Shown here: in pieces, positions 421-58,197 of the stretch | How positions within the stretch are numbered: the first letter of the stretch is position 1 | Layout: each line of letters starts with the position of its first letter | Source: a virus | Length of the DNA: 64,000 bases | Virus record (IMG/VR): IMGVR_UViG_3300050821_010639 | Span: 88,047-152,046 of that record | Strand: one strand, 5' to 3' | Notes under the pieces: generated by a model | Databases searched by the model: none | What the model was told of the DNA's origin: nothing | The model's input: the letters and a program-made list of their open reading frames with translations, nothing else | Made by a program: the position numbers and the translations under genes

Positions 421-1011
421 TTCAAAGGATAAGGGATCGACTTGACTCGTGTCAAGTGATCTCCGGTATTTCCTCTCCGCCAGGCTGACCAGGGCCGGAG
501 CCGGGCCGGTAACGCGCTCCTGGGGCCCGCGCTCGCGCTGCCACGCCACGGCCAGGCCCAGCCGGGCCCGCCAAGCGAGCGCGGACACCGCGTTGGGGCT
601 CATGCCGGAGGTTCGCGCCAGCTCGGCCGGCGTGCGCCCCTCCACCTCGGTCTGCCACAGCACCGCGCGCCAGCGGGGCGGCAGCGAGTCGAACGCGCGA
701 CGGGTCATCCGCTGCTCCTCGGCCGCGGTCGCCAGGTCCCCGGCGCCCGGCACGCGCACCATGCGAGGATCGAGCGGCACGGGGTCGATGCGCCTGCGCT
801 CGGCCAGCCAGTCGCGTGCCAGGTTGCGCACCGCGGCCAGCAGGTAGGGCCGGAACGCGCCGTCGGGGCCGTGGCCGGCCCGCTGCCTGGCCAGCACCCG
901 GGTGAACGCCTCCGCCACGATGTCATCGGCCGCGTGCGCGGGCACCAGGGCCAGGGCCACGCGGCGCGCGGCGCTCCGGTGCTCGGCGTACAGGTCGGCG
1001 AACTCGGGCAT
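217..1011 (-). CDS. Sigma-70 family (ECF-like) RNA polymerase sigma factor; functional end probably at or before the TTA at 432-430
   Basis: Region 2 motif ADDIVAEAFTRVL...FRPYLLAAVRNLARD; region 4 AFDSLPPRWRAVLWQTEVEGRTPAELA...NAVSALAWRAR; TAGCAT 6 nt before the ATG suggests a leaderless start. Confidence 0.9.
   Translation of the reverse strand: MPEFADLYAEHRSAARRVALALVPAHAADDIVAEAFTRVLARQRAGHGPDGAFRPYLLAAVRNLARDWLAERRRIDPVPLDPRMVRVPGAGDLATAAEEQRMTRRAFDSLPPRWRAVLWQTEVEGRTPAELARTSGMSPNAVSALAWRARLGLAVAWQRERGPQERVTGPAPALVSLAERKYRRSLDTSQVDPLSFECERGRKVSEQARGGPARSAQKGSSTGYSASRSPSRPGPHSQGQGKPDITQQRLPGPGRVPGERVSLT
426..456 (-). promoter_or_regulatory. SigmaA-type promoter with overlapping palindromic operator
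   Basis: TTGACA-N18-TATCCT; CTTGACTCGTGTCAAG at 441-456. Confidence 0.7.
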
Positions 1012-1022
1012 GGCGGCATGCT

Positions 1023-1053
1023 AATGGCCCCCGGCGCGATGCCGGGGGCCATT
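1023..1053. terminator. 13-bp hairpin, probable terminator just upstream of the sigma gene
   Basis: AATGGCCCCCGGC-GCGAT-GCCGGGGGCCATT. Confidence 0.6.
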
Positions 1054-1068
1054 TCGCTTAGCGCGCTA

Positions 1069-1326
1069 CTACTGGCCCGAGAGACCGTTGAGTACGTCCT
1101 CGAAAGGCCGCGGCTGCGCTCGGGCCAGCGGTAGCTCCAGGGCCTCGCGCAGCTCGCAGACCAGCATCTCCGCCACCCGGCGGCGCGAGCGCAACTCGGG
1201 AAAAGGGATCTCGTCCAGGTGAGCCTCAGCGATGGTAAGCACCCGGGCGAACGCCTCGCGCTCGGGCTCGCTCAGGTCCAGCAGGACCAGCGGGTTCGGG
1301 GGGTTGTAGCCGATGCGCTTGATCAT
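1069..1326 (-). CDS. Hypothetical protein
   Basis: Start overlaps upstream stop; protein-like composition. Confidence 0.65.
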   Translation of the reverse strand: MIKRIGYNPPNPLVLLDLSEPEREAFARVLTIAEAHLDEIPFPELRSRRRVAEMLVCELREALELPLARAQPRPFEDVLNGLSGQ

Positions 1327-1718
1327 TTCTGCCCTGCTTTCCCGCGGCGGCCCGGCCGCACGTAGTCCTTGTAGCGATATTGGGCTGCTATGGCCGTCAG
1401 CGGCGGCTCACCGCGGCACCCGGGGATGTTCTCCTCACTCCACGCCGCCGTGTTCAGGTTGAGGTCGTAGACGACACCGGGCTTATCCGCGTGCATGGGA
1501 AGCTTTGCCTCCACCAGCAGCGGGGTGCTCTCCAGGTAGAGGCCGGTACAGGCGCTGCACAGCCGGTCGCCGCTGCACGCCGTCAGGCCGTCGAACCTGA
1601 CGGCGTTGTGCTCGTACGGGACGCCCGGCTTACCGCACCACGAGCACGCCGGCTGGCGCGCGTGCTCGGCGTCGGCGTACGCCTGGATGCCTGCGGTGAG
1701 GTCGCTCACGTCAGGCAT
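1323..1718 (-). CDS. Hypothetical protein with CxxC motifs
   Basis: Start MPDVS after AAGG; CSWC...CSAC. Confidence 0.65.
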   Translation of the reverse strand: MPDVSDLTAGIQAYADAEHARQPACSWCGKPGVPYEHNAVRFDGLTACSGDRLCSACTGLYLESTPLLVEAKLPMHADKPGVVYDLNLNTAAWSEENIPGCRGEPPLTAIAAQYRYKDYVRPGRRGKAGQK

Positions 1719-2088
1719 CCTTGCGCAGGTTAGGGAAGTCGTACTTGCCGAAGTCCGAGCCGTCCGCCGGCCAGCCGCGCGGTGCCACGCCGAACCCGCC
1801 GTCGAAGTCAGCCTCCCCGCTCGCACGGGGGCGGTCTTCGAGAATGCTCTGCGCGACAGCGGCCTTAGCGCCGGACTGCCCGTAGAAGTAGCCGCTCCAG
1901 AAGTGCGCGAACGCCTTGTCCGGGCCATCTAGCCCGCTGTCGCGAATGCCCTCCACCATCTGTGCAACCGAGCGCTGGTCGGACGGGTCGAACTTGACGA
2001 TCTCGCGCTCGGTGCCTTCCTCAAACAGGATGACCCATCGGCCGATCTGCTGGATAAGGAACCGCCCGCTCGGAAGTCGCGCCATCAT
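1711..2088 (-). CDS. Hypothetical protein
   Basis: Start MMARLP overlaps upstream stop; the rest of the listed ORF is out-of-frame overlap. Confidence 0.65.
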   Translation of the reverse strand: MMARLPSGRFLIQQIGRWVILFEEGTEREIVKFDPSDQRSVAQMVEGIRDSGLDGPDKAFAHFWSGYFYGQSGAKAAVAQSILEDRPRASGEADFDGGFGVAPRGWPADGSDFGKYDFPNLRKDA

Positions 2089-2726
2089 GCCACCGGCCCC
2101 GGGTAGAAGCCCTTGAGCATCTTGTGCGTGTCCGGAATGCGGTCGCGAAACGCCGGCGGGATGGCACCGCCGAACCACATGTTGGTCGACACCAGCACCG
2201 GGCCGCCGTCCAGTGGCTGAAACTCGAACCGGTACCCGCCGAACCCGCGCATGCCCTTCGCGGCCTCGTCGCCGACGCTGAACCAGCAGTGGTTCTCGAT
2301 GACCACGCCCTCCCGGCCCTTCGCCAGCTCGGCGATGTGCTTCTCCCAGCGGGCATCGTCGTTGTCGGTCCACGGCCCGCTCACCCTGACCGAGATGCAC
2401 TGCGACGCCGGCAGGCCCGGCTGAGCGTAAGCCTGCACGTGCCAGACACTCGCCGACCCGTTCGGGTGCCAGCGGTGCACGATGGCCGAGCACCCCCGGC
2501 CATCGGCGCGGAACAGGCCCAGGGTCACCGACCCGGCCACCGTGCCGTCCATCGGCACGAGCTTGTCGCACTCGGCCTGTACCGCCTCCTCCAGCGCGCG
2601 GGCCTGCGCGACGGCCAGGACCCCGGCCGACAGCCCGGTACCGCCGCCGTGCGAGCGCGGCTCGGCGTCTTTCGCGGCCTGCACGGCCTTCCACAGGTCA
2701 CTGCCCTCGTCACAGCGAACGATCAT
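2085..2726 (-). CDS. Hypothetical protein
   Basis: ATGA coupling at both ends. Confidence 0.7.
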   Translation of the reverse strand: MIVRCDEGSDLWKAVQAAKDAEPRSHGGGTGLSAGVLAVAQARALEEAVQAECDKLVPMDGTVAGSVTLGLFRADGRGCSAIVHRWHPNGSASVWHVQAYAQPGLPASQCISVRVSGPWTDNDDARWEKHIAELAKGREGVVIENHCWFSVGDEAAKGMRGFGGYRFEFQPLDGGPVLVSTNMWFGGAIPPAFRDRIPDTHKMLKGFYPGPVA

Positions 2727-3061
2727 GACCTGGCCAGCCTGTTCAGCCGGTCGATCTCGGCCGCCAGCAGAGCACCCGCCTCGCGCGGGCCCTCCTCGTC
2801 AGACCCGATGTCCGCGGTGCCCTGCTGGCGGCCGACCTTGACCCGGGCGAGCAGGAGGCTCGCCATGCTGGCCAGGTCGGCCGTAGCCGTGAACCCGTCA
2901 TCGTGCTCAGGGGTATAGTTCAGCTGCTCGATCTGCCGACGGCGCTCGCGGATGACCTCCGCCACTCCGTCCACCGCGCCAGCCTGGTGGAGGTAGGCGA
3001 TGTCACCCCAGATGGCTTTCAGCGCCTCCACCTGCAAGATATAGTCCGGTACCTGGCTCAT
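2723..3061 (-). CDS. Phage hypothetical protein (ERRRQIE...TPEHDD motif)
   Basis: Motif familiar from phage proteins; coupled ORF. Confidence 0.7.
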   Translation of the reverse strand: MSQVPDYILQVEALKAIWGDIAYLHQAGAVDGVAEVIRERRRQIEQLNYTPEHDDGFTATADLASMASLLLARVKVGRQQGTADIGSDEEGPREAGALLAAEIDRLNRLARS

Positions 3062-9953: not shown

Positions 9954-10154
9954 CTACCGGGGACGGTGGCGCGAGCCGCGCTGCGGGCGCTCGAAGTCCT
10001 GCCAGCGGGCCGCGTAGCCCTCGCGGCGGGCGGGCGCCACCGGGGCAGGCGGCAGCACCACCCGCGCCGGCCCGGCCTGTCCCCGTGCGTAAGCCCGGTA
10101 AGCGGCCCGGCCCGCGGGGCTGAGCCGCCAGCGGACGTAACGAAGGGTCTTCAT
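9954..10154 (-). CDS. Small basic protein
   Basis: GGAGG RBS. Confidence 0.6.
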   Translation of the reverse strand: MKTLRYVRWRLSPAGRAAYRAYARGQAGPARVVLPPAPVAPARREGYAARWQDFERPQRGSRHRPR

Positions 10155-10377
10155 CAGTGCCTCCCCTGTGTCGTGGTGAGTAGTGCAGGTAGAACCTGAA
10201 CAGCAGCCCGGTATGCAGGGCCAGGGCGACGGCCCCGGTCCCGTAGCCGAGCGCGGTCACCCAGTGCCGGCCCGCCAGGCCGAAAACGCAAGTGGCCGCC
10301 AGCGCCGCCGCTGCCATGGAGAGCAGGACGACGCCGGCGGCACGCAGCGCCTGCGCCCGGTCAGCCGGGCTGGGCAC
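10138..10377 (-). CDS. Two-TM membrane protein, apparently ending at an in-frame TTA (formal ORF runs on to 9166)
   Basis: 79 protein-like codons, then TTA just past the next gene's start; the remainder is out-of-frame overlap of two genes. Confidence 0.55.
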
Positions 10378-17175: not shown

Positions 17176-17913
17176 GTGCCCCAGGTCCAGCGAAGTGAGC
17201 CGATGTGGCGGCAGGTCGCCAGCCACTACAAGGGAATGATCTTGCGCGGTGAGCTGCGCGAGGGCGACCAGCTCCCGTCGGTCCGCCAGATCCGCGACGA
17301 ATGGGGCGTGTCCCAGGGGGTCGCCCAGCGGGCGGTAGAGCACCTGCACCTGGCCGAGCGCCTGGTGGCCACCGGGCCGTCCGGCACCGTGGTGGCCGCC
17401 CCCCGGGCCGCGTTCGGACCGCAGCAGCGCATGCGGCTGACCGCCGCGCCGGCCTCGGAGGTGGTCACCGTCACCTCGGCGGGCCTGGTGCCGGCGCCGG
17501 CCTACGTGGTACCGCTGCTGGGCCTGGCCGAGGGAGACCCGGTGATCCGGCGCGAGGAGGTCACCCGGCGGGCCGACGGCAGCCCGCACAGGCTGAGCGT
17601 CACCTGGTGCGCCCCGCAGTACAGCCTGCCCGTGCCGGAGCTGACGGCGGAAGAGCCGCTGCCTGACCCGCGGGGAGCCGGCCCGCTCATCGCGCAGCGG
17701 CTGGAGGTCGAGGCCGGCAACCTGCACGGGGGCGTCGCGTTCGAGGCCCGGCTGGCGAAAGACGACGGGCGCGAGCTGCCGGCGCTGGGCCTGGCGGCCG
17801 GCGCGTTCGTGCTGGCCGGGGTGAGCGGCTGGCGGTACGGGGACGACACGCTGGAGTACACCGAGTTCGTCCTGCCGGCCGGGCAGGTGGTGGAGGCCGA
17901 CATCGAGCCGTAG
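17176..17913 (+). CDS. GntR/HutC-family repressor with UTRA domain (KorA/TraR-like)
   Basis: QVASHY..MILRGELREGDQLPSVRQI..EWGVS; divergent from the tra operon. Confidence 0.9.
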   Translation: MPQVQRSEPMWRQVASHYKGMILRGELREGDQLPSVRQIRDEWGVSQGVAQRAVEHLHLAERLVATGPSGTVVAAPRAAFGPQQRMRLTAAPASEVVTVTSAGLVPAPAYVVPLLGLAEGDPVIRREEVTRRADGSPHRLSVTWCAPQYSLPVPELTAEEPLPDPRGAGPLIAQRLEVEAGNLHGGVAFEARLAKDDGRELPALGLAAGAFVLAGVSGWRYGDDTLEYTEFVLPAGQVVEADIEP

Positions 17914-17978
17914 CGTGTAGCCTGCGTGACAAGGAGCTATTGCCACTCGCTTCAGTTGTGCAAGACCTGGAGCAGCGG

Positions 17979-18019
17979 AGAGCCCCGCCCCTCGCGAGGG
18001 GCGGGGCTCTTTTATTTTT
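17979..18019 (+). terminator. Rho-independent terminator
   Basis: AGAGCCCCGCCCCTCGCGAGGGGCGGGGCTCT followed by a T tract. Confidence 0.9.
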
Positions 18020-18124
18020 CCCGGGCCGGGGGTACAACCGTAGCGGGACACGTCACCCTCCAGGGGCCCCGCGTCAAGGCAGAGGCGCGGGGCCTTTGTC
18101 CTGCCCCCGGCCGATGTACCGGGC

Positions 18125-18292
18125 ATGAAGACGAACGCGGAACTCATCGCCGGACTGCAAGCGCTGGACGGGGACCTGCCGGCGCGGGTGCTGGCGGCCG
18201 GGCCGGACGGGAGCGTCAGCTCGTACGACATCACGGGCGTCGCCGCCGGGCCGGCCGACTTCGGGCAGCAGGCCAGCATCAGCATCGGCTTA
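18125..18292 (+). CDS. 55-aa protein, apparently ending at an in-frame TTA (formal ORF to 18487)
   Basis: MKTNAELIAGLQALDGDLP...; TTA at 18290-18292 abuts the convergent gene's end at 18295. Confidence 0.5.
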
Positions 18293-18294: not shown

Positions 18295-18840
18295 TCAGAC
18301 ACCGCCGAACCGCCCGAAGTCCGGTACCGCCGGCGCGTCCAGCCGGGTGAACAGGTGCGCCACCTCGGCGATGCTGCGGTGCCGGGACGGCGGCGCCACC
18401 ACCTGCACCCCGAAGTCACCCGGGTACAGCAGCCAGTGCAGGTCACGCAGCGCGTACCAGTCCGGCAGTTTCCCGGGGTCCCGGTAGTACGACAGCGAGA
18501 CGTGCGCCCACAGGCCGCCGCCGTCTTCCCGGTGCAGGGAGTGGATCATCTTCAGGTTCAGGCTGCCGTGCCCCCAGCCGCCCAGGCCGGCGGTGCCCTC
18601 GAACGCCCGGCGCCAGCCCGCGGCCTTCAGCCGGCGCTCCTGCCCCGGCGCGTCCGCCCGGAGGCGGGCCTGCAAGTCCCCGTCCGCCACCGACCGCTCG
18701 TAGTAATCCCGGGCCGCGCGCTCCTCGTCAGGGCCCAGCCCTGTGAGCGCGGCCATGCCGGCGTTCTCCTGCTCCAGGTGCGCGCGCAGCGCGGCGCTGT
18801 TGTCCCTGACCCCGGCCTTGCGGCCTGATGAGCGTCCCAT
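18295..18840 (-). CDS. Phage hypothetical protein (W.HVSLS...LP.W motif)
   Basis: LWAHVSLS...KLPDWY...VAHL motif familiar from phage proteins. Confidence 0.7.
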   Translation of the reverse strand: MGRSSGRKAGVRDNSAALRAHLEQENAGMAALTGLGPDEERAARDYYERSVADGDLQARLRADAPGQERRLKAAGWRRAFEGTAGLGGWGHGSLNLKMIHSLHREDGGGLWAHVSLSYYRDPGKLPDWYALRDLHWLLYPGDFGVQVVAPPSRHRSIAEVAHLFTRLDAPAVPDFGRFGGV

Positions 18841-28112: not shown

Positions 28113-29032
28113 CAGCCGATCCCGTACAGTGCGAAGTTGCTGCCGGCCAGGAAGTTGGACCCGGCCGGGGCGGTCAGCGTGACCGCGGTGACGGCGGCCT
28201 GCGCCGCCGGGTTCCAGAAGCCCCAGCGCAGCCGCCCGTCGACCATGGAGGACGTGCCGTTGCCGGCGCCGGACATGGAGTAGACCGACTTGTTGAACGC
28301 GCCGGCCGCGTAGTTGGGCACCCAGGCGAAGCCGCCGCCGGCGTTGACCGGGGCGCCGCCCTGGCTGGCGTTCACCCGGAACGCGGGGATGCCGCTGACC
28401 GCGAACGCGGTGGAGGCGGCCGGGCCGACCAGTGAGCCGGAGGTGTTGGTGGCCGAGACGGTCAGCTGCGAGTAGTGCGCGCCGGCGTCGCCGTTGAAGT
28501 TGAGCGTGATGTCGTCGGCCAGCGCGGTCGTCTCGGTCAGCCGGGCCTGGCACACGATGAGCAGGTGCTCGTAGGTGGCCGGGATGCCGGACCAGGTGAT
28601 GACGTTGGACGCTGAGGTGGCCAGCGTCGTCTCGTTGATGACGGCCGCGGCGTTGCCGCTCCAGGCGCTGGCGGGCAGGCCGTGCACCCCCGAGCCGGAG
28701 CCCATCGCGTAGTGCAGGGCCGCCGTGGTCAGGTCCCCGGCGCTCCAGGTGTGGGCGATGGGGGTACCTGCCACGTGCGCCTTGGCCAGGGTGCCGTCGT
28801 AGGCGCGGGTCACAGTCCACGGGGTCGCTACCGTGCCGGCGCCCGCCGTCACGCTGACCAGCTCGAAGTTGGCGGAGGCCGGCTCCAGGCACAGGGTGAA
28901 CGGGAAGCTGACGGGGTAGCCGACCGGGGCGCCCGAGCCCGCCACCACCGAGGTGCCCGAGGTGTTCAGGTTCCCGCCGCCTGGCACCGCGAGGGTGTCC
29001 GGTACCGCCAGGTTGCTAAGTAATAGCGCCAT
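28112..29032 (-). CDS. Minor tail protein; TTA at codon 4
   Basis: PFTL.LEP...ELV.VTA...TVTRAYDGT.AKAH..G and IPATY.HL motifs typical of actinophage tail proteins. Confidence 0.8.
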   Translation of the reverse strand: MALLLSNLAVPDTLAVPGGGNLNTSGTSVVAGSGAPVGYPVSFPFTLCLEPASANFELVSVTAGAGTVATPWTVTRAYDGTLAKAHVAGTPIAHTWSAGDLTTAALHYAMGSGSGVHGLPASAWSGNAAAVINETTLATSASNVITWSGIPATYEHLLIVCQARLTETTALADDITLNFNGDAGAHYSQLTVSATNTSGSLVGPAASTAFAVSGIPAFRVNASQGGAPVNAGGGFAWVPNYAAGAFNKSVYSMSGAGNGTSSMVDGRLRWGFWNPAAQAAVTAVTLTAPAGSNFLAGSNFALYGIG

Positions 29033-29097
29033 TGGGTCACGACGGTGGCTTCCCCCCTTGGTCCTCTCGGGGACTCTTCGGGGGTGCTATCGGCGGG

Positions 29098-29961
29098 TCA
29101 GACGTACGCGTCCCCCCAGGCGAAGAGCGCGGTACCCGCAGTGACTGAGATCGAGTTGGCCCCCGGCAGCAAAGTCATCCACATCCGGCTGCCGATGTGG
29201 CCCAGGCCGCCGACCACGTTGTTGCCCACGGCGTCGAGCGCGGTGTAGCGCAGCACGTCCACCGTGACCGGCCAGGACTGGACGCCCGCGCCCGTGTGAG
29301 AGAAGGCCACGCCGGCGGTGTTGTTGGTGACCGTACAGGCCTGGGAGACCGCGACGGTAAAAGAGTTGATCGCGGAGGCGAACCCCTCGCCCACCACGCC
29401 CTCGCCGAGCGCGGTAATCGTGCCGCCGCCCGTGCCCACCACCTGCGACCGCTGAGCGGAGTAAAAGTAAGGGTCGCTGAGCAGCAGGTCCACGCTGAAA
29501 GCCGCGTTGGTCCGGCTGTTCATCGTCGGGTCCATGCTGCCGGCGATCTCGGCCATCGCCGTGGAGGTGACCATGGTCGGCGAGCCGCCCTGGGTCAGCC
29601 ACCAGTTGCGCTGCAGCTGGCCTTGCACGCTGCCCTGCGCCCCGCGGGTGAAGAACAGCTGGCGGAGCATCTGGAAGTTGTCGTTGAACGCGCGGCGCGG
29701 GTCGCCCGCCGGGTACGGCTGGCTCGCCGACATCTGGCTGTCGGTCCACATGGTCAGCGTGATGGTGCGCTCGTCCAGGTACTTGCCCCGGAACAGCTGG
29801 CCGGAGCGGTAGGGCACCTCGTAGTCCTGGCCCCGGTTGGTGGGGACGCCGAAGCGGGAGCCGCCGAAAGTGGCCACGTTGTAGTAGCTGGACTGAAGCG
29901 GAATACCGTTCCAGTACCACATTTCCGCTGGCAGGTAAGCAGCTACCGGGGCAGCGACCAT
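29098..29961 (-). CDS. Distal tail (Dit-like) protein
   Basis: Directly after the tape measure; ERTITL, F.VDL...DPYFY, LLPGANSI. Confidence 0.85.
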   Translation of the reverse strand: MVAAPVAAYLPAEMWYWNGIPLQSSYYNVATFGGSRFGVPTNRGQDYEVPYRSGQLFRGKYLDERTITLTMWTDSQMSASQPYPAGDPRRAFNDNFQMLRQLFFTRGAQGSVQGQLQRNWWLTQGGSPTMVTSTAMAEIAGSMDPTMNSRTNAAFSVDLLLSDPYFYSAQRSQVVGTGGGTITALGEGVVGEGFASAINSFTVAVSQACTVTNNTAGVAFSHTGAGVQSWPVTVDVLRYTALDAVGNNVVGGLGHIGSRMWMTLLPGANSISVTAGTALFAWGDAYV

Positions 29962-32900
29962 AAGATCATGCCTCGCCCTCCGAGGAACGCAAGCCTGTTG
30001 GACGTCCGGGTAATCGAGTCCTCGGTAGCGGCAGGCCGCGGGTTGTTGATGGTCAGGGCGTCCACGTGCAGCCCCACCCGGGTGCTGGCCGCCCCGTCCG
30101 CCATGGTGCGCGGCATCTCCCTGGAGGCCGACGCCGACAGCTGGCGCGAGAGGGTAGCCGACATGCCGGGCACGAACAGGCTGGGCACCAGGCCGCCGGC
30201 CGCCATGCCGCCGCTGAACATCCCGGCCACGCCGGCCAGCCCCGGGACCTCGCCGCCGCCCGCCAGGCCGAAGCCCATGTTCCCGACCGCGGGCGCGGCC
30301 GGGCCGCCGACGATGAGCTTGTTCAGGTCGATGAGCGTGCCGCCGCCGGTCCCGCCCGGCCCGGAGGGGGCCCCTGGCGTGCCGGCCCCCCCTGTCCCGC
30401 CCCCGCTGCCACCGGAACCCGGAGCCGGGGTGAGCGTGGTGCCCCAGATGCCGTGCCACGCGTTGTAGGCGTCCACCACGTCTGCCTGGAACTTAGCCAG
30501 GTTCGACTGGATCGGGCTGTAGAGGGCCGGCTCCCTGGACTGGGCCAGCGTGGCCACGTCCATCGCCGCCTGCCAGCGGCGCACCGAGCTGTTGGCGGTC
30601 GACCACATCGCCGGGGTCAGCTCCTGCGGGTTCGTCTTCAGGTCGGTGAACAGCGGCGCGATGTAGCTGCCCGCCACCGACACCCGGTTCTCGATCGCCG
30701 CCCTCGTCGCCAGCCAGGACTTCCAGTCGGCGGCCGACACCCCGGCCGGCTGCCGGGTCCAGGCGTTCAGTGACTTCCACGGCTGCAGCGCGCCCTCCCA
30801 GTCCGGGTACAGCCGGGCCGCCTCGGCCTGGTAGGCGGCCACGTCGCCGGACGGGGCGGCTGACAGGCTCTGCCCGGGGGCCGGGGCGAGCATGTTCTGC
30901 ACGGCGGTCCACGCGTCGGTCAGCCGGCCGGTGGCCGGGGTGCTCCAGTGCGTGCCGAGCGTGGTCGACGCCATCGCCGCCGCGTTGAGCGCGGCGTTCG
31001 CCGGGGTGTTCTTCCACGCCGACGCGGAAGAGCCCAGTACGCCCTTGGCGTAGGCCGGCTCCACCAGCCGGGCCGCCGTGACAGGGTCCTGGGCCTGCGC
31101 CTGGGTGAGGCCCTTGTGCTTGGCCAGGCTGAGGAGCCACGCGCCGTACTCGCCGTAGGAGGGGGCCGACCCGGCCGCGTTCTGCGCGGTCAGCAGGTAC
31201 GAGCCGAGCGCCATCGCCTCGCGCGTGTCGGCGTTGGGGGTGGTCGCCAGGATGGCGGTCATCACCGGGCCGCCGCCCGCGTACCAGTGGTAGGCCTCCT
31301 CGTGCGCGAGCGCGCCTGCCGGGGTGCCGTAGCGCTGGGCCACGTAGTTGAGGAACGCGGTCACCTGGCCCGCAGCGGTACCCGCGTTCCCCCCGTACTG
31401 GGCGTACTCGCTAGGCCCGTCAATGAACTGGGCAATGCCGTAGGCGTCCGACGTGGGGTTCTGCGCGTTGAGGTTCCAGCCGGCCTCGTCCATCTCGACC
31501 GCGTTCAGGTCGTCCCACAGCGCCCCGGTCCAGCCGCGCGCGGCTGCCATCGCCTTGGCCAGGGCCTGCACCTGCCCCGCCGACCCGCCGACCGCGTTCG
31601 CTGCCGTGGCCCCCGCGGTCTTCGCGACCGACGCGGTGGCCGCCGCGGTCTGGGCGGTCATCCAGGTGGCGACGCCGTTGTGGATGTCCTGCAGCCAGGC
31701 GGCGCCCATGTCGCCCGGCGTGCCGAGCGCCTCCAGCGCCTTCTCGGCAGGCACCCCGGCGGCCGACCACATCGCGTTGAAGACGGCCTGCTCACCGAAC
31801 GAGGCCACGTCCTTGGCCGCGCCGGCGATGCCGTCCCAGGCAGCCGACGCCGCGCCCTTCACCCCGGTGACCGCGTCACCTAGCCAGTTGGTGATGTTCC
31901 CGATGACGCCGCCACTGGCGTACCGGCCGTGCCCGGTGCCCCGCTGGGAGGCCGCGTTGCCGCGCGAGCCCGAGCCCAGCCAGGTGTCCGCCTGGTTGAG
32001 CTGGTCCATCACGTCCGGGCCGTAGGCGGCCTGCAGCGCCATCCGGGCGGGCTTGCGGACCATGAACTCGCCGCCCACGGCGACGATGTGCGTGCCGTCC
32101 TCGTCGCCGGTGCCGGGCACCGAGCCGGACACCGCGTGCACCGGGCCGCCGCCGGCCAGCTTGGAGATGGTGCCGATGTGCACGCCGACGATCGACGTCA
32201 CCGAGTTGATCCACCCGATGACCGTGTTCAGCCCGTCGATGACGTGGTCAATCCCGCCCTTGAGGGAGTTCCACATGGCGTTCGGCAGGGTGGAGGTGAA
32301 GAAGTTCTCGATCGGGGTCAGCACGTCCCGGCTGAACGCCGACCAGGTGTTGGACCAGGCCCTGGTGGCCGCCGCCGTGAAGCTGTCCCACCACTTGGGC
32401 ACGTCGCCGGTGAAGAAGTTCTGCAGCGGGGCGAGCACCGTCTTGCTGAATCCGGACCAGACCGCGCTCCACGCCTTGGTGGCGTCCGTGGCCAGGCTGT
32501 TCCACCAGCTAGGGATGCTGCCGGTGAAGAACTTCTGCAGCGGGGCGAGCACCGTGGTGTCGAACGACTTGACGTTGGCGTTCCACAGGTTCACCCACCA
32601 GCGGCTGACGGAGTTGAACCAGCCGGGCACCGTGCCGGTGAAGAACTTGCCCAGCGGCTGCGCCACGTTGGCGTTGAACTGGGCGGCGGCAGGCCCGAAC
32701 CAGATGTGCCACAGCTGGACCGCCAGCGCGGCGATGGCCTGGAACGTGGTACCGAAAAACGCCTTCAGGGCATTGAAAACCTGGATGCCCCACGACTGGA
32801 TGTCAATCCAGGCCTGGTGCCAGTGGCCGGTCACCACGTCGAGCGCCACGGAGATGATCGCGACCACCGTGTCCCAGGTGATCTTGGCTATCGCGACCAC

Positions 32901-35900
32901 GGTGGCCCACGCGCCCTTGAACGCGAAAGACAGGATGTCAGCAGCGGACTTCGCAGCCTTTTCGACAAATCCGAAAAAGACTTCGGCTCCGAACTGAATC
33001 GTGGACCAGACAGCGGAGCCGGAGACCTTCAGCCACTGCCAGGCCTGCGCCCCGGATTCCCGCAGGCCCTTCCAGACGTAGCCCCAGGCCGAGGACCCGG
33101 CCGAGGACAGGAAGCCCCACGTCGCGGAGCCGGAGACCTTCAGCCACTGCCAGGCCTGTGCCCCGGCCTCCTGGAGCCCCTTCCACACGTCCCGGGTAAA
33201 GCTGTTGTCGGCTGCGGCCTGCATGACGTGCCAGAAGCCGGTGCCGGTGTCCTTGATGAAATCGAACGCCTTGACCGCAGCCCCGCTGATTTCGCCCCAG
33301 ACGGTATCCCAGGTCGCCATGAGCGCCTGGCCGTGGGTGGCCCACCAGGGGTCGAAGTTGGAGGCGACCCAGCTGGTCACGTCACCGAACCCGCGTACCA
33401 CCGGCGCCGCCACGTCGCGCCAGGTGTTGTTCCAGGCCGTGCCGAAAGCGTGCGGAACCGACTGGGTGAACCAGTCGAACATGCCGTCCCAGGCTGCCTC
33501 GAAGGTCCTCGCTACCGGGCCCCACACAGCGCCGAACCCGTGCGGCACCGACTGGGTGAACCAGTTGACCGCCCCGTCCCACGCGGACTCCACGGCGTGG
33601 ACGGAGACCTTCGCCGCCTCCGGCAGGTCGTGCACGAAGAACTGGCCGATCGCGTGGTTCATGATCTCCAGGCCGCGCTGTACCTGGGGAATCCACGCGA
33701 GGAACGTCAGCTCGTAGAACGTGCCGTCTTTGAAGGACTTGAGCAGCGTGTCGACCTCGCCCGGCTTGACCAGGTTCGCCGTAGAGCTGGCCGTTGCCGC
33801 CAGCTGGCCGCGCAGCTTGCTCAGGCTCGCGTTGTCAAGGTCGGAGACATCGCCCTTGGTGGCCTTGAGCTTGTCCTGCAGGGCCTTAAGCTCCAGGTCC
33901 TTGATCTCCGTCTCGACCTGGAGCTTCTTCTTCCCGGTCAGGCCCGGCAGCTCGGCCTTGAGCTTGTCCGCCTTCTGGAGTGCCTGGACCGCGTCCAGCT
34001 CGTAAGTGGTCTTGACGCTCTTCGGGAGCGCGGTGACCTGGACCCACAGCGCGTTCGCCTGCTTGGCGCTCAGCCCCATCGCCTCGCCGAAGCCCACGAA
34101 GTTGGCCTTGGCGCTCGCGCTGCTGCCGGAGACCGCGAGCAGCTCAGCGGCCACGTTGTGCGCCGCCGCCGCGGTAGCGGCGCTGGACGGGCCGGACTTG
34201 GCCAGCGCGTCGGCGAACGTGTTGAAGACCGCCTGCCCGCCGTGGGCATTGAAGATGGCGGCGGCCATCGCCGGGTTGAGCAGGCTCTGCAGGGTGTTAG
34301 TCAGCCGGGCCGCGTCCTGGCTCAGGTTGGAGGCCCCGATGGCAGCGTCGCTGCTGGCCTTGTACAGGGCCTGCAGCGGGTCGACGGCGTTGCCCACCCA
34401 CTGCTGCAGAACCTTGATGTTGTCGGTGGCCGGGCCGCCCGCCTCCTGGGCAAGGGCGGAGATCTGGGCCGCGGCCTCCTTGCTGCCGCCGGCCATGGGG
34501 ATGAGGGTGGCGACCGCGTTCTTGACGAACGCCGTGAAGTTGCCGCCGCCGGCCAGCGCCTGGGTGTTACGGAACGCGTCGAACAGCTGCTCGACGTTGT
34601 TGTAGTTGGACTGGAAGTCGTTCTGCAGGGTGATGCTGGGCCCGCTCAGCCCGGTCATCGCCGCGCCCGCCTTGGCGGCGTCGGAGTTGAACCCGGCGAT
34701 GCTCTGCGCCAGGGTGAGGACGGCGGACGGGCCGCCGGCCACCGTCTTGGTGAAGGTGTCGTAGGCGGTGTTCAGCTTGCCCATCGAGGCGACTTGCGCG
34801 GAGTTCTCCAGGTTCAGCGCGTTCAGGTCGGAGCCGATGGCCCCCAGCTGCTGGCCCATCGCCTGGTACCCGGCGATGAGCCCCTTCACCTGCTGCTCAG
34901 CGGTCGCCCAGACGCTGGCCTGGTTGCTGAACAACTGGTTGGTGGTGACCCCGGCCGCGTTCAGCAGGCTCAGCGCGCCGACGAAGTTCGTCCCGTAGGC
35001 CTTGGAGACGTCGCCGACGTGGGTCAGCTCCTCCTGGAGCTTGCCGGACAGGTCCGACTGAGACGCGGCCAGCTCAGAGGCGTTGCCGACGCCGGTCTGC
35101 TGGGCCTTGTTGAGGGTGGTGGTGACCTCGGCCAGGTTGGACACGGTGGTGGAGACCACCGTGAGCAGCGACGCCTTCTGAACGGCAGCGCCCATGGCAT
35201 CGGTGAACTGCTTGGTCTGGTCGGCCCGGGTGCCCAGGTAGACGCCGACGGCGATGAGCGCGGCGCCCAGCAGGCCGAGGTCCACGTAGACGTTGGACAG
35301 CACCGGGGCAAGGCCGCCGAGCATGGCCAGCAGCCCGCCCCCGCCGCCGACCGCCTCGGCAGCGCCCTCAGCGCCGGCACCCAGTTCTTCAGCCCCGGTC
35401 GCCGCGCCGCCCAGCTTCTCGGCCATCCCGGCCAGCTGGGTGTCGCTCGCGCCGGCGGCGATGCCCAGGGCGACCGACTTCTTGCCCGCGTCGTCCAGGC
35501 CCTCGCTGAACCTCTCCAGCCGGGCCGCCGAGGTGGTGCCGGCCCCGGCCACGAAGTCTTCGACGCTCTGCCCGGTGGCCTTGATGGAGACGGCGAGCTG
35601 GGCCAGCTCCTCCTCGCTGGCCTTGGCCCCGAGCGCGTCGGAAACCGCCCCGACCTCGGCGCTGCTCCTGGTGATGTTGACCAGCTGGGTGTTGGTCGCG
35701 CCCAGCGCGCGGGCCACCGCCTCCGCCCCGGCGTTGAGGGCGGGGAACTTGCCGAGGAGCCCGGCCAGCCCGATGACCACCTTGCCCACCACGTCGGCGG
35801 CGAGCCCGCCCCACAGCACGATGGCGTGCAGCCCGAGGCCGGCGGCCAGCAGCGGGGTGGGGGTGACCTTAACGATGTCGGCAGCGATCTTGAGGATGAA

Positions 35901-38769
35901 GTCACCGATGACGGCCAGGTCCTCGGCCACGTGCGTGAGGGCCGTGGCCTGGATGAACTTGGCGACGATGACGCCCAGGGAGTCGAACCCCTGGCCGATG
36001 AGCGCGAGGTCCCTGGCGCCGACCGCCAGGAAATTCTGCAGCCCGCCTCCGCCGCCTTGCAGGGCGACGACGACCTTGGCGGCGAACCTGTCCAGGTAAC
36101 TGCCGGTCTGGTTGATGAGCTGGCCGAGGACGCCGGTCTTGTTGCCCGCCGCGGTCAGGTAGTCACCGAGCAGCTCGTAGACCTGCGGGCGGACCGCGTT
36201 CTCCAGCTTCTGGAAGTTGCTGGTCAGCGGCGGGATCGTGGTGTTAAGGGCATTGCCGACCGTGCTCAGGCTCTGCCACTGCTGGAAGATCTCCTTGAAC
36301 GACTGGTAGCCGGCCGCGCCGAACGCGATGAGCCCGGCCCCTGCCGTGACCAGGGCGGGCACCCACAGGGCCAGCACCTCGACAACGCTGTCCAGCAGGA
36401 TGTGCCAGAGGGCTACCTGGCCGATCATGTGCGTGTCGCCCAGCAGGCCCGACCACAACTGGACCTGCGTCCGCAGCAGGCCGATGCGCCAGCCCATGTT
36501 GACGGCGGCGTCGCTGTCGGCCTTCATCGCGGCGGCGGCCTTGGCCGCCGGGTCGGCCAGCCCGCCGAGCCCGGCCTTGACGTCGTACAGGGCGCGGCCG
36601 GCATCGGTCGCGGACTGGTCCGCGTCGCGCATCGCCTGGGCGATCTGCTCCCACGCGCGCGACTCGTCCGGGTCGGGCACGTCACCGCCGGGGTCGCCCG
36701 GAGGCGGCCCCCCGCCACCGCCGCCGCCGGAGGCGCCGCCCATGCCGGCGGTGACGCGGTTCTCCGCCGCGCGTGCCTCTTCCAGCTCGCGGACCCAGCT
36801 GGCCAGCTCCGCCTTGGCCGCGTCGTCACCGAAGCTGGCGTAGAACTCGTACTTGCGCTGGACCGCCTCGATGAGCGCGCTCATCCACCGGGACAGCCCG
36901 CTCTCGGCGCCGGTGTCCTCGAAGTCGGCGCGGGTGCCCACCTCGCGCTCAATGTCCTGGATGTCGCGGCTGTAGTCGCGGACCTCCTCCGACGCGCCGC
37001 TGGAGTCAACCACCAGGATGGTGTCCACCTCGTGCGGGATGTCGCGCAGGCCCTCGTCCAGCCCCTCGGCTGCCATCCGGGCCTGCTCGACCTCCTCGAA
37101 GTCGACCCCGAGCCGGGCCTGCGCGTGCTCGTTCAGGTGCGCCAGCTCGCTGGCCAGCAGCTGGGCCTCGGTAACCCCCTGCACGAGGCTGCCGTCCTCG
37201 ATCTCCGGGCGGGCCGGGTGGTCGTCCAGCCACTCCATCTCAACGGCGATCTTGTCCAGCACCTGCTCGGCTGCCGTGCCGCCCTGGACAGCTACCTTCT
37301 CAGTGGCCGTGCCGCCCTGCATGTACTTGCTCAGGCCGGACCACAGCTCCTCTTCCTCCGCCGGGCGGGCGACGACCTGCATGGGCGCGGGCACCGGGTA
37401 GCCGCGCGGGGCGTCGGAGATGACCCCCTCGCGCAGCGCCCCCGCGACGTCCTGCAGCCCGTAGAGGTCGGCGAGGTTCTGGTTGCGCTGCCCGGGAGTG
37501 ACAGGAGCTGCCCGCTTGCCCCGGCCGCCGCGCTGCGGGACGAACCGGGCGCCGGCCTCCGACAGCAGCTGCTCGGCCGCGGCGAGCCGCCCCAGGCCCT
37601 GCTCCAGCGCGCGGGCGTCAACCGCGGCGAGCGCGAGCGAGTCCTGGAACTTGGCGATGGCGTCGGCGGAGACCGCGGTCTTGTCATTCAGCAGCGCCAT
37701 CGAGCCCGCGAGCGCGCCGGTGCCGTCGGACGCGGCGGACAGCGCCTCTCCCGACAGGGGGCCTGGTCCTGACCCGGTGACGGCCAGCGGGGCGCGCAGC
37801 GCCTCCGGGCGGGCTCCGGCGACCGCCTGGGACAGCGCGCGGTTGACCGCCGCGTAGTCGATGTCCGGCCGCACGGAGACCGGCACCGTGGCGTGCTGCG
37901 GCGTGAGCGGGACACCGCCGAGGCGCGAGGCCACCGACACGATGTCCACCCGCTCGGAGCCCGGCAGCCCGAGTAGCGCCGCCCGGTAGGCGGCGAGCTG
38001 CGACATCGCCTGGCCGTCATCGAGCACCGCCTTGGTGACCACCGTGTCCGGCAGCCCGACCAGCGCCGCGCTGTAGGCGTTGAGCGCGCCCAGCCCCTCG
38101 CCGAGGCTGCCCGCCGTGGCGTGCGTGCCCTGCAGCGCGTTGGCGTGCGCGAGCAGCAGCTGGGTCTCGGCGCTGATGGCCGCGCTGCGGTCGCGGATAG
38201 CCGCCGACAGCGAGGCGGTCTGCATGGTCTCGCGCTGCAGGAAGCCCAGGTACTGGTCAGCGGTCTGGTAGCCGGCGAAGTGCGCCCGGTTCTCCAGCAG
38301 GGCGAGGTTGTACATCTGCTGGCGGTAGGACATGGCCTGCTGGACCGAGGAGAAGCCGAGCCAGTGCTGCCGGTTGAGCAGGGTGGTGTAGTTCAGCTCC
38401 TGACTCAGGTCACTCAGGTGCTGGGTCATGTCGTTCCGGCCGCCGTACAGCAGCTGGGTGTTAGTCGACTTGGCCGACTGGGCCAGCTGGGACAGGGCCG
38501 TCGTCTGCTGCTGGATGGCCTGGACGTCCCTGGCCCGCGCGGCAGCCGCCTGGGTAGAGCCCGTCACCTCGGCCGCGGTCTCCGCCTTGACCGCGTCCGA
38601 CATGCCCTGCAGCGCGGCCTTGGCCTCGGCCGCATCCCGCATCAGGCTGCCGAAGTCACCTGAATGTTAAACCGATCGCTTTGTAAATTACGTACCAAAG
38701 CGATCTAACCAATATTCTGGTCCCTCATAAGCCACAGCTGCGGCTCAGAGGCTCAGAATAAGGCGTCAT
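29943..38769 (-). CDS. Tape measure protein with C-terminal lytic transglycosylase-like domain; 5' end split by TTA inserts (contiguous ORF 38642-29943)
   Basis: ~2900 aa Ala/Gly-rich, Trp/Phe periodic repeats, EAGWNLNAQNPTSDAYGIAQF; follows the chaperone. Confidence 0.95.
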
Positions 38770-49485: not shown

Positions 49486-49910
49486 CAGTCGCCGCCGCTC
49501 TTCCACGGCAGGCCGGCCGACGGGGCCCTCCCGCCCTTGCCGCCGGTCACCCAGTTCCAGAACGCCTGCCGCACGCCCGCCTCGAACTCGTGGCCGCCGG
49601 GATCGAAGAAGTAGTGGCGGCCGGGCACGGGGTGGTGCCTGGTCGGGGCGTCGCCGCGCGCCAGCTCGAAGATGCCGGGGTTACGCGCGTAGTCGATTTC
49701 GCCTGTCCAGGTGTACTTGTCGAAGTGCGACTGCGGGTGACCGGACTCCAGCAGCCCCCCGGTGATGACGTGCACCCGGCGCTCGGTGATAGCGTAGCCG
49801 AGCATCAGCGCCGCTTCCATGTGGGCGATGGTCTGCGCGTCCGGGCCGCGGGCCAGCCGGTCCAGCTCCTCGCCCGCCCCGTCCAGGTAGACCGCGAAGT
49901 ACTCAGCCAT
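49485..49910 (-). CDS. Putative neck/tail-completion protein (HK97 gp10-like position)
   Basis: VHVITGGL..S motif; synteny. Confidence 0.6.
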   Translation of the reverse strand: MAEYFAVYLDGAGEELDRLARGPDAQTIAHMEAALMLGYAITERRVHVITGGLLESGHPQSHFDKYTWTGEIDYARNPGIFELARGDAPTRHHPVPGRHYFFDPGGHEFEAGVRQAFWNWVTGGKGGRAPSAGLPWKSGGD

Positions 49911-50400
49911 CTGCGCTGCCCGGGTACGGCGTCGGGCTGCCTGGCTTGAGCATCTGGGATACCTCGAAAACCTGGGTCTCGATGTGGTGCGCGCCGAACA
50001 GGTTCTGCGCGACGTCGGGGATGAGCCGGACCTCGAACGTGCCGAAGATCGGGCCCTGCACGCACTGCAGGCGGTCGCCCGCCTTGACCAGCGACGCGCC
50101 GTTGGCGTCAGGCGCGGGGTCAAAGTAGCAGACACCCGTGCGGTCGGGGGCACGGCCGGCCACGACGGGGGCGGGCTGGTCCTTGCCGGGCCGCAGGAAC
50201 GTCAGGTCAAGGCGGCACTGCAGCAGGCCGGGCGTGTTCAGGTAGTGGTCCACCACCTGGTCCACCGGGTCCCAGGCGAACGCCATGCCGCCGCCGGAGT
50301 TCAGCGTCTCGTTGAGGCGGAGCACCTGGCAGACCGAGGTGTAGAACATCCGCATGCCCTGGCCAGGCGCGAACGGCTGGTAAGGCTGCGGCGTGGTCAT
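49903..50400 (-). CDS. Putative head-closure (stopper) protein
   Basis: VKAGDRL...FEV...HHIE; synteny. Confidence 0.65.
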   Translation of the reverse strand: MTTPQPYQPFAPGQGMRMFYTSVCQVLRLNETLNSGGGMAFAWDPVDQVVDHYLNTPGLLQCRLDLTFLRPGKDQPAPVVAGRAPDRTGVCYFDPAPDANGASLVKAGDRLQCVQGPIFGTFEVRLIPDVAQNLFGAHHIETQVFEVSQMLKPGSPTPYPGSADG

Positions 50401-50666
50401 GCACTGGGAATCGGAGGCCGCTTCATCACCCTGAGCGTGACCCGGCCGGGAGCGGCCGGGTAGACGCGCAGGTTCATAACCGGAGACGGCCGGAAGCTCA
50501 GCTCGGGCACCGCCTGGATGTCGATCATGTGCCCGTCAAAGTCGAACTCAGTGTCCACCAGCAGGTCCGTGCCTTCCGCTACCGCCGAGGACCCGTCCGG
50601 GTAGTAGAGGTAGATCGCGAGCCGGACCGCCCGCTGGCGGGTACCGTGGTCAAACGGGATCGTCAC
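50397..50666 (-). CDS. Hypothetical protein
   Basis: Coupled. Confidence 0.6.
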   Translation of the reverse strand: MTIPFDHGTRQRAVRLAIYLYYPDGSSAVAEGTDLLVDTEFDFDGHMIDIQAVPELSFRPSPVMNLRVYPAAPGRVTLRVMKRPPIPSA

Positions 50667-50803
50667 CAGTTCACCCTGCCGTACAGCAGCAGGTCCCCGA
50701 TGATGAACAACGCGGAGAACACGATGCCCGCGCCAATAGCGAACAGCAGCGTGAACAGGACCCTGTGCCAGAGCCTGTACCCCTGCACCCCCCGGTGAGC
50801 CAT
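50663..50803 (-). CDS. Small membrane protein
   Basis: Single TM helix; TGATG coupling. Confidence 0.55.
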   Translation of the reverse strand: MAHRGVQGYRLWHRVLFTLLFAIGAGIVFSALFIIGDLLLYGRVNW

Positions 50804-50949
50804 CACACCACCTGCCAGCCGTGCCCGTGAAAGAGGTTCCACACCTTGCCGTGCACGCTCTCCGGGTAGTACCACTGGGTGGCCCACCCCGGCGGCGCGA
50901 AAAAAGCCCAGAGCCCGCCGAAGAGCCCGTCGTTCGCCAGCTTCCTCAT
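50803..50949 (-). CDS. 48-aa aromatic-rich protein (not in the ORF track)
   Basis: MRKLANDGLFGGLW...; coupled at both ends. Confidence 0.5.
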   Translation of the reverse strand: MRKLANDGLFGGLWAFFAPPGWATQWYYPESVHGKVWNLFHGHGWQVV

Positions 50950-56225: not shown

Positions 56226-56256
56226 CAGCCGCGCTCCTCGCTGCGCCTATCCCCGG

Positions 56257-57396: not shown

Positions 57397-57516
57397 GCCC
57401 CGGGTAATCGGACTAAAGCGGAAACGTCCTGGCCTCGGGGTTCAGCACCACGTACCGGCCGAACCGCTGACCCGCCTGAACAAACCTCCTTGGCGTTCCC
57501 ACACGTCTTACTACGC

Positions 57517-57735
57517 CTAAGGCGTCTTCCGCCTGCGGTAGCTGAAGGCAGGCGACCGGGCCATGATGTCGTCGGCTGCCTGGCGGAGGATGTCCTCTGC
57601 CAGCGACGGGTCAGTTTTCGCCACCCGGGCAGCCCTGCGCACGCTGGCCGCCGCATCGTCCAGCCCGGCAGCCTCCAGGCGGTCGGCGATCTCGGCTGCC
57701 TCGGCCGGTATGTCCCCGTCCTGCCGGATGATCAT
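57517..57735 (-). CDS. Hypothetical helical protein
   Basis: AGAGG RBS; -10 TAGACT upstream. Confidence 0.6.
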   Translation of the reverse strand: MIIRQDGDIPAEAAEIADRLEAAGLDDAAASVRRAARVAKTDPSLAEDILRQAADDIMARSPAFSYRRRKTP

Positions 57736-57742
57736 GTTTCCT

Positions 57743-57772
57743 CTTGACTGGAGTCTAGCAATCGTGCAGAAT
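57743..57772 (+). promoter_or_regulatory. Divergent promoter plus degenerate operator
   Basis: TTGACT-N17-CAGAAT; CTTGACTGGAGTCTAG. Confidence 0.65.
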
Positions 57773-57822
57773 GGGTTCCGCTGCAGCAGTCCGTGCAAAC
57801 TTCTACGGCAGGAGAACAGCAA

Positions 57823-58047
57823 GTGCAGACGGCAGGACATCAGGCCGGCCCGACCTGGGTCAAGAGTTCGCTGAGTTTCGCGAACGGCAACTGCGTTGAG
57901 GTAGCGAGCCTGTCCGGCGGCGAAGTTGGCGTCCGGAACAGCAGGGATGCTGCAGGCGCGGTTCTCCGCTTCACGCCAGACGAATGGCGCGCGTTCATCG
58001 GTGGCGTTCAGAGCGGCGAATTCGACAGGTTCGGCCAGCAGGGCTAA
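57823..58047 (+). CDS. DUF397 (BldB-like) protein
   Basis: WVKSSLS..NGNCVEVA...VGVRNSRD..G.VLRFTPDEWRAFI.GV..GEFD. Confidence 0.95.
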   Translation: MQTAGHQAGPTWVKSSLSFANGNCVEVASLSGGEVGVRNSRDAAGAVLRFTPDEWRAFIGGVQSGEFDRFGQQG

Positions 58048-58197
58048 CTCGTCAGCGTCAGGGGCCGCGGTCCCGTCAGCGTCAGCAGCCCCCGGGTCGA
58101 TGGTGACCCGGGGGCTGCTTTCATTCTCCGGCGGCGGCTCCGGCTCCTCGCGCACGGCCCACTCACCGTCGTCCCGCGTCACCCACTCACTGCCCAT
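58045..58197 (-). CDS. 50-aa acidic protein, apparently ending at an in-frame TTA
   Basis: Late motif at -14; TTA at 58047-58045 is the complement of the DUF397 TAA stop. Confidence 0.5.

Follow-up and report, generated by a model that had tools for sequence, protein, structure and literature searches.

The stretch of DNA analysed here (the window; 64,000 nucleotides, positions 88,047 to 152,046 of IMG/VR virus record IMGVR_UViG_3300050821_010639) is the final 64 kb of one viral contig of 152,046 bp, with a guanine-cytosine (GC) content of 69.6%, from an uncultured high-GC actinomycete phage. Nearly all genes of the contig lie on the minus strand, and the window holds tail, tape-measure, portal and other structural genes together with small regulatory genes, a gene for a sigma factor of the extracytoplasmic function (ECF) type and a DUF397 gene. 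The subject of this work is the codon TTA, which the initial annotation had noticed at the position of a stop codon in five of these genes. All five were found as described (Table 1), and they form part of a wider pattern: about 12 of the approximately 205 genes in this genome end at an in-frame TTA without a canonical stop, five of them in the window. The analysis shows that about 6% of the phage genes have their functional end marked by TTA, which is evolutionarily equivalent to a stop codon.

Relatives were found by protein-guided searches of IMG/VR as contigs of 124–151 kb, seven of which were taken whole. The six close relatives (G001–G005 and G007) have a GC content of 68–72% and 33–37 tRNAs each; with this genome (G000) they form a seven-genome pool of about 245,000 codons. 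The TTA pattern recurs in all six.

The five genes of the window

Table 1. Coordinates, in window numbering, of the genes, terminal TTA codons and frame-breaking elements discussed in the text. ORF, open reading frame.
Feature	Coordinates	Strand	Remarks
ECF-type sigma factor gene	433..1011	-	Read to the codon preceding TTA
Terminal TTA of the sigma factor gene (site 5)	430..432	-	Within the -10 box of a TTGACA-N18-TATCCT promoter
Non-coding 'tail' of the sigma factor ORF	217..429	-	Up to the canonical TAA, 71 codons past TTA
Small membrane-protein gene (ORF 10377)	10141..10377	-	Coding score highest in this frame
Terminal TTA of ORF 10377 (site 4)	10138..10140	-	17 nt inside the next gene (ATG 10154, gene 9954-10154)
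55-codon ORF (ORF 18125)	18125..18289	+	Top coding score of six frames, +18.1
Terminal TTA of ORF 18125 (site 3)	18290..18292	+	GGC TTA GGT; next stop 65 codons on, antisense to gene 18295-18840
Minor-tail gene, 5' end	29015..29040	-	GTG frame V T Q W R Y Y meets TTA; conserved frame resumes 2 nt on (AGC AAC ..)
Terminal TTA of the tape measure gene (site 1)	29961..29963	-	TTATG; A shared with the ATG of the next gene (29961)
Tape measure gene	29964..38735	-	Conserved GTG start 38735 to the codon preceding TTA
Tape-measure bypass element 2	38655..38673	-	GGT / TTAACATTCA / GGT GAC; 13 nt extra
Tape-measure bypass element 1	38692..38711	-	TGG / TTAGATCGCTT / TGG TAC; 14 nt extra
DUF397 gene	57793..58047	+	Pfam
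Terminal TTA of ORF 58197 (site 2)	58045..58047	-	Reverse complement of the TAA of the convergent DUF397 gene
50-codon acidic ORF (ORF 58197)	58048..58197	-	Top coding score of six frames; G001 77%, G002 64%
Portal bypass element 2	61651..61663	-	GGC / TTAACCT / GGT; this genome alone
Portal bypass element 1	61748..61760	-	ACC / TTAAGCC / ACG; common to G004

The tape measure reads ...GGRGMI and then TTA, and its canonical TAG follows six codons later (29945-29943). The C-terminus ..FLGGRGM[IV] is kept in five relatives, and the codon at the TTA is TTA in G000 and G003 and TGA in G001, G002 and G004. The stop/start junction reads TGATG in G002, G004 and locus L010, and G005 has TAA three codons earlier; in G003 the TTATG is followed by an open tail of 69 codons. 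At site 2, the TTA is a shared codon in G000, G001 and G002, with tails of 176, 86 and 67 codons, respectively. After the TTA of site 3, the plus-strand frame scores 0.2, against 11.4 for the convergent minus-strand gene. The TTA of ORF 10377 is its first stop-like codon, and under the standard code the frame would stay open for 324 further codons across two downstream genes; the orthologue in G002 has a canonical TGA in an ATGA overlap, nine codons past ..HY, and G000 is shifted by one base. In the sigma factor, the Pfam domains Sigma70_r2 and r4_2 finish near residue 150 of 193, and the coding signal stops 13 codons before the TTA. The promoter that holds this TTA comprises the palindrome CTTGAC-N4-GTCAAG at 456-441 and TATCCT at 431-426. 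The identical aligned codon occurs in G001 and G002, with tails of 27 and 62 codons, and G003 has TGA at about equal length; the tail of the sigma factor ORF matches no Pfam family, carries no coding signal and varies in length among the relatives.

Genome-wide placement of TTA

Coding segments were delimited with a seven-state coding-frame model, trained on position-specific base composition and blind to stop codons, in which one TTA costs about 1.8 nats and a frame switch carries a penalty of 12. Most of the approximately 200 coding segments in this genome finish a few codons from a canonical stop. Several apparent long tails proved to be true coding sequence clipped by the model, or overlaps with the next gene, and these have no TTA at the end of the signal; the long tails that appear non-coding (337, 148 and 50 codons, and that of the sigma factor gene) each have an in-frame TTA 0–13 codons from the signal end. 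This genome has 11 in-frame TTAs in approximately 42,000 coding codons, and all lie at gene ends, directly after stops or at frame breaks. The by-eye claim of the initial annotation that no credible gene carries TTA in its middle therefore holds for the model-detected codons, none of the 11 being inside conserved coding sequence.

The same placement is seen across the pool. In the seven genomes, TTA accounts for 8 of 229,661 gene-body codons versus 29 of 15,167 end-zone codons (Fisher p = 2e-28), and the eight body codons are all at conserved terminal sites or frame breaks. When six genomes are pooled, TTA is by far the rarest gene-body codon, at 0.036 per 1000 versus 2.1 per 1000 in the end zone; this 58-fold enrichment compares with 10-fold for AGA and at most 5-fold for every other codon. 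Inside genes the three phases of TTA are occupied 6/325/327 times, and the share of TTA trinucleotides that are in frame is 1% inside genes versus 20% in the end zone. The first-TTA sites of the seven genomes number 53, in 32 families, and 43 of them lie within 15 codons of the end of the coding signal.

Re-calling the genes with TTA as a stop, as the initial annotation had proposed, cuts only 6 of 1123 genes within the coding signal, and those six are conserved terminal sites; the next-best codon declared a stop cuts 54. The same re-calling removes 22 of the 90 long tails and 14 of the 45 long overlaps. In this genome, where an ATG start is overlapped by more than 4 nt by the upstream gene, the overlapping codon is TTA in three cases of four; in ATGA overlaps it is TTA in none of 18. 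An artefact of the coding model was ruled out, given the 1.8 nats set against the penalty of 12 and the independence of the orthologue alignments (below) from the model, as was sequencing or assembly error, since identical TTAs occur in independent metagenomic assemblies.

The pattern was also sought in more distant phages. Microbacterium phage Magritte, the nearest cultured phage (portal 53% identical), has no terminal-TTA pattern, and TTA is nearly absent from it overall. The distant relative G008 (portal 52% identical, GC 66.7%) carries two tRNA genes, one of which is tRNA-Leu(UAA); the pattern is absent there, and its few TTAs are distant from the ends of the coding signal.

Exchange of TTA with canonical stop codons

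For each TTA site, the last 70 residues before the TTA were aligned to the other genomes and the aligned codon was read off. The orthologous codon was TTA 69 times and TGA, TAG or TAA 32 times, and was never leucine with continued conservation; 14 alignments to 'sense' codons are offsets of one to five codons beside a stop or TTA. No sense codon other than TTA was found at orthologous stop positions. Homologues with a canonical stop at the TTA, which the initial annotation had suggested looking for, occur in at least nine gene families, at the same or the adjacent codon: the tape measure, the gene upstream of a DNA methyltransferase, the methyltransferase itself and sites 14966, 65880, 97325, 73587, 91454 and 61448. 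Exchanges between TAG and TTA recur, even though two changes are needed. The relatives of the sigma factor gene and of the small membrane-protein gene finish at a canonical stop at about equal length.

Sequence beyond the TTA behaves differently from sequence before it. Orthologues that share the TTA are 62% identical over the 15 residues that precede it, and this value falls to 20% beyond it. Canonical stops follow at a median distance of 28 codons, which resembles the median of 37 for random out-of-frame runs; some tails are only 2–6 codons long, and others extend for 137, 176, 324, 402 and 526 codons, passing through downstream genes in the wrong frame. Neither the sequence nor the length of the extensions is thus conserved, and no internal TTA was found aligned to leucine within a conserved domain in the seven phage genomes; either observation would have spoken against the initial annotation. 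The codon that follows a terminal TTA mostly starts with T or C (TTATGG, TTACAG, TTACGT, TTATCC, TTACCA), and a TTATG junction is present in about 10 of the 32 families.

Inserts opened by TTA in structural genes

In addition to gene ends, TTA opens short frame-breaking inserts within two structural genes. The portal gene starts at ATG 61829 on the minus strand, and two hops of 10 nt are needed to reach the full frame, whereas the portal N-terminus is a single continuous ORF in G001, G002, G003 and G005. Skipping element 2 yields ..AVGVPYFLPF, which matches G005. The frame just upstream of the conserved LPFATPY contains a TAA and no start codon, and the 449-residue portal ORF listed with start 61560 has been called too short. 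For the tape measure, the start is the conserved GTG 38735 and not ATG 38642, as its orthologues begin V/M-AYEGPEYWYVIYKA; in G003, G005 and G007 the 5' end is in one frame and reads V/M-AYEGPEYWYVIYKA.GDFG..LMRDAA. Element 1 of the tape measure is also carried by G002 and G004; G001, G003, G005 and G007 lack it and have ..EYWYVIYKA.. in a single frame. Element 2 is likewise shared with G002 and G004; G003, G005 and G007 do not have it, and G001 has a 10-nt version, TTACCCAGGT. A candidate third element, GGC / TTATGAG / GGA, was rejected, because in the correct frame these bases belong to the conserved start GTG GCT TAT GAG.

All four inserts begin with an in-frame TTA, their lengths (10, 10, 14 and 13 nt) are not multiples of three, and the take-off and landing codons match (TGG/TGG, GGT/GGT, GGC/GGT and ACC/ACG). 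The initial annotation had proposed that UUA serves as a hop trigger, and the portal and tape-measure inserts, set beside the uninterrupted genes of the insert-free relatives, bear this out. Since both proteins are essential, translation of the phage genes would have to take place where UUA is left undecoded.

The minor-tail gene is interrupted in another way. The sequence V.QWR[YF]YSN.AV.DTL is encoded in a single frame in five relatives, and this genome has two extra bases (TT). In its ATG frame, too, codon 4 is a TTA, and there is no landing codon that matches. In G007 the TTA is at codon 2; the other frame of that genome was read by eye. A general fusion of genes by hopping at terminal TTAs was considered and rejected: a repeat of the preceding codon follows the TTA at 28 of 53 sites, no clear departure from the 42% at canonical stops, and the GTA..GTA of a radical-SAM gene stands out.

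Terminal TTAs outside the window

Three further junctions of the contig illustrate how terminal TTAs are arranged. The DNA methyltransferase gene (G000 49701-50914) has a TTATG junction on each side, one of them with a 50-codon tail. The gene may have entered a TTATG junction as a cassette, in which case its C-terminal LWLTR* would be the former tail of the upstream gene; as a general cause, such insertion was set aside, since it leaves the other approximately 30 families unexplained. A radical-SAM protein of about 960 residues (G000 19493), with orthologues in all seven genomes, has the conserved end GGC GTA TTA CAG GTA and tails of 20–526 codons past the TTA. The rare codon GTA is repeated 9 nt apart here (10 nt in G007), and CAGGTACCTG is palindromic; instead of acting as a plain terminator, this site could trigger a hop or form an RNA- or protein-binding element. 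Finally, a two-helix membrane gene (G000 85551-85709), with GGAGGTG-N9-GTG, is in frame with a terminal TTA and starts two codons past it. From that TTA to the start at 85709 the frame has no canonical stop, and the standard code would fuse both genes.

Within the window, the non-coding gap at 17914-18124, after the plus-strand gene 17176-17913, contains a long GC-rich inverted repeat resembling a terminator hairpin.

tRNA supply in the phages and the likely host

The tRNA array of this contig, as called by ARAGORN, has 35 genes, including Leu-CAG, Leu-GAG and Leu-CAA and lacking Leu-UAA. No tRNA-Leu(UAA) was found in any of the seven phage genomes, despite their 33–37 tRNAs each. Searches of the phage for a protein with an RF-1 domain (PF00472), i.e. 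a phage-encoded release factor or ArfB, and, with ARAGORN, for transfer-messenger RNA (tmRNA) found none, and no Rfam family matched within the window.

The DUF397 protein of the phage has matches with up to 95% identity among the proteins of Trebonia and of other, likewise uncultured, peat and soil Streptosporangiales, so that a Trebonia-like member of the Streptosporangiales is the likely host. No related prophage was found in Trebonia kvetii with the portal as query. In that genome, one tRNA with a UAA anticodon is present among 67 ARAGORN calls in the regions around its 62 Rfam matches, and one copy was found in each of five related genomes, 93–99% identical to that of T. kvetii. Host-like loci (307 kb) contain TTA at 0.28 per 1000 in gene bodies, including mid-gene positions in conserved XRE-type regulators beside DUF397 genes. 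The likely host is thus predicted to read TTA as leucine, with the hallmarks of a bldA-type system: a single tRNA(UAA) and very rare TTA. With this tRNA and the mid-gene TTAs of the host, there would be no host-wide change of the code, as far as the indirect host assignment goes. The suggestion of the initial annotation that UUA is stop-like or unassigned can therefore be divided: stop-like behaviour in the phages is borne out by the exchange with stops, and a permanently unassigned codon is contradicted by the host tRNA(UAA) and by the TTAs in conserved regulators.

Some features of these tRNAs are unusual. The UAA and CAA tRNAs of Trebonia are 75–78 nt long and do not have the long variable arm that is usual for bacterial tRNA-Leu, and the same holds for the CAA tRNA of the phage (G000 6853-6930). 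The Trebonia UAA tRNA has C instead of U at position 33. For all these tRNAs, the amino-acid identity is assumed from the anticodon alone. The 185-kb T. kvetii contig that carries tRNA(UAA) also holds a dense array of approximately 20 low-scoring tRNA genes (C3:78500-80700), including one called Tyr-ATA, in what looks like a phage-derived island.

Discussion

We consider it probable that UUA is left undecoded in infected cells, in a bldA-like manner, and acts there as a terminator or as a hop trigger. UUA would not be read as leucine during translation of the genes of this clade of approximately 125–150-kb high-GC phages, and ribosomes would stop at an in-frame TTA where the protein ends. In evolution TTA is interchangeable with TGA, TAG and TAA, and the stop/start overlap TGATG is kept as TTATG. 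Where a copy of the preceding codon lies 10–14 nt downstream, as in the portal and tape-measure genes, a ribosome at the undecoded UUA may hop over the short insert. The most likely cause would be tRNA supply: the phages are without a UUA reader, and the likely host appears to have a single UUA-reading tRNA, like that of Streptomyces bldA, which in the cells that support phage growth would presumably be scarce, inactive or inactivated. We infer that the undecoded UUA is followed by release of the nascent chain, for which rescue factors, peptidyl-tRNA drop-off and a phage factor are candidate routes.

Several points weigh against this interpretation. The host assignment rests on a single transferred gene, DUF397, and the likely hosts keep tRNA(UAA) and decode TTA, so that conditional non-decoding is an assumption. 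All seven phages are metagenomic, and their protein ends were read from sequence. The TTAs of sites 2 and 5 are also fixed by the convergent TAA stop and by the -10 box, respectively, and no orthologue of ORF 18125 (site 3) was found in the relatives. Some terminal TTAs may be recoding sites and not terminators, such as that of the radical-SAM gene, which repeats the take-off codon GTA. Furthermore, ribosomes that stall on a sense codon are normally rescued by tmRNA, which tags the product for degradation (PMC2635970), and efficient peptide release from a ribosome stalled at a sense codon is not a known process. Abundant structural proteins, the tape measure among them, and the conservation of TTATG would be difficult to reconcile with tagging by tmRNA, and a dedicated release activity therefore stays live as a more radical alternative.

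In that alternative, UUA would be a true fourth stop codon, recognised by a release-factor-like activity of a phage factor or of an altered host factor that releases the peptide, and the sense codon would have been truly reassigned to stop, like TTA in NCBI translation table 23. The free exchange of TTA with canonical stops at orthologous codons, the TGATG-like arrangement kept as TTATG and the absence of selection for a nearby back-up stop would all follow from it. Nevertheless, the phage is without an RF-1 domain protein, the likely host keeps tRNA(UAA) and uses TTA for leucine in conserved genes, and efficient release would compete with the hops that UUA also triggers in the portal and tape measure; we regard a fourth stop of this kind as unlikely. 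Its infection-bound form, in which UUA is a real stop in infection, actively recognised with peptide release by a phage or host activity, and is read as leucine in the uninfected host, seems doubtful to us; if true, it would be a virus-specific, switchable sense-to-stop change of the code, the first outside organelles. A more conservative account is tolerated stop loss, in which TTA is slowly read as leucine and the tails are translated, TTA being the commonest survivor as expression of the junk extension stays low. The changes from TGA and TAA to TTA are single ones that retain the overlapping ATG, several tails have only 2–6 codons, and the host is able to decode TTA. Yet stop loss would hardly place TTA 69 times at orthologous positions with no other sense codon at stop positions, the recurrent exchanges with TAG require two changes, the longest tails (137 to 526 codons) cross downstream genes in the wrong frame, and decoding of UUA would wreck the portal and tape-measure proteins at their inserts, all of which makes this account quite unlikely.

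The remaining explanations concern the local sequence around the TTAs. A +1 slip at TTAG or TTAA would bring a genuine TAG or TAA into the A site, as has been suggested for the upstream ORF of adpA; this idea has been raised for UUA followed by G or A (PMC10732093), and sites 2 and 3 do read TTAG. As a general mechanism, which the initial annotation had entertained, such slippage does not fit the T or C that follows most terminal TTAs or the TTATG of about 10 of 32 families, and is very improbable. Chance or miscalled genes, with AT-rich promoters and antisense sequence supplying TTAs near gene ends, would account for the local context of site 5, where the TTA lies in the -10 box, and of site 2, where it is the complement of a TAA stop, and to that extent the caveat attached to the initial annotation is justified. 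It does not extend to the whole pattern: TTA reaches 58-fold enrichment in the six-genome pool and no other AT-rich codon exceeds 10-fold, the seven-genome contrast has p = 2e-28, the in-frame share of TTA differs between gene interiors and end zones, and the sites are conserved or stop-replaced in independent assemblies. We find chance scarcely credible.

Significance and comparison with known systems

Non-decoding of UUA in infection would have consequences for annotation and for the biology of these phages. Standard gene callers and code tables assume that genes end at TAA, TAG or TGA, and here about one gene in seventeen lacks such an end. Routine annotation consequently misplaces C-termini, fuses genes falsely and creates long spurious overlaps, with the tape measure and the sigma factor among the genes affected. 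If the interpretation is true, the structural and regulatory programme of the phage would hinge on how the host reads UUA, a built-in sensor of the developmental state of the host.

Sense codons that became stops are known from organelles: in NCBI translation table 23, TTA is a stop in Thraustochytrium mitochondria, and in table 22 TCA is a stop. As in those organelles, the codon is missing from gene interiors and stands at gene ends instead of canonical stops. However, the organelles lost the tRNA and their code is fixed, whereas the likely host of this phage appears to keep tRNA(UAA) and to decode TTA, and the effect would therefore be limited to the phage or to a state of the host. Unassigned codons, such as AGA and AUA in Micrococcus luteus and CGG in Mycoplasma capricolum, offer another parallel, in that GC pressure makes a codon very rare, a working decoder is missing and translation halts. 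The Micrococcus and Mycoplasma codons are merely avoided and are not terminators, and the likely host here has the tRNA gene.

In the Streptomyces system of bldA and the adpA upstream ORF (PMC10732093; PMC2635970), a single tRNA likewise serves a very rare codon, and TTA is likewise found in regulator genes of the likely host. There, TTA inside genes delays expression until the tRNA appears; here TTA marks the protein end, and read-through would be the abnormal outcome in these phages.

The closest likeness is to the Streptomyces phage phiHau3. Pausing at UUA and bypass have been proposed for the phiHau3 terminase and the adpA upstream ORF (PMC10732093), the bypass in the large-terminase gene being a proposal of Smith et al. 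(2013) taken up by Antonov et al. (2023; PMC10732093). Like the phage studied here, phiHau3 is a high-GC actinomycete phage in which the rare UUA is the trigger, short inserts started by TTA (10 nt in phiHau3, 10–14 nt here) lie in an essential conserved gene, and the product requires that UUA be left undecoded. The hops described here are in the portal and tape-measure genes, and TTA additionally replaces the stop of about 6% of genes, which the phiHau3 work does not describe. A full-text literature search found the work on UUA bypass and on the adpA upstream ORF, and nothing on TTA replacing stop codons of phages or bacteria. The idea derived from phiHau3 and bldA would thus extend from one terminase gene to a genome-wide strategy in which, in at least seven phages, a single rare codon both terminates genes and triggers hops. 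This phage clade represents a new variant of UUA-dependent recoding and, if release at UUA is active, a new kind of genetic-code change.

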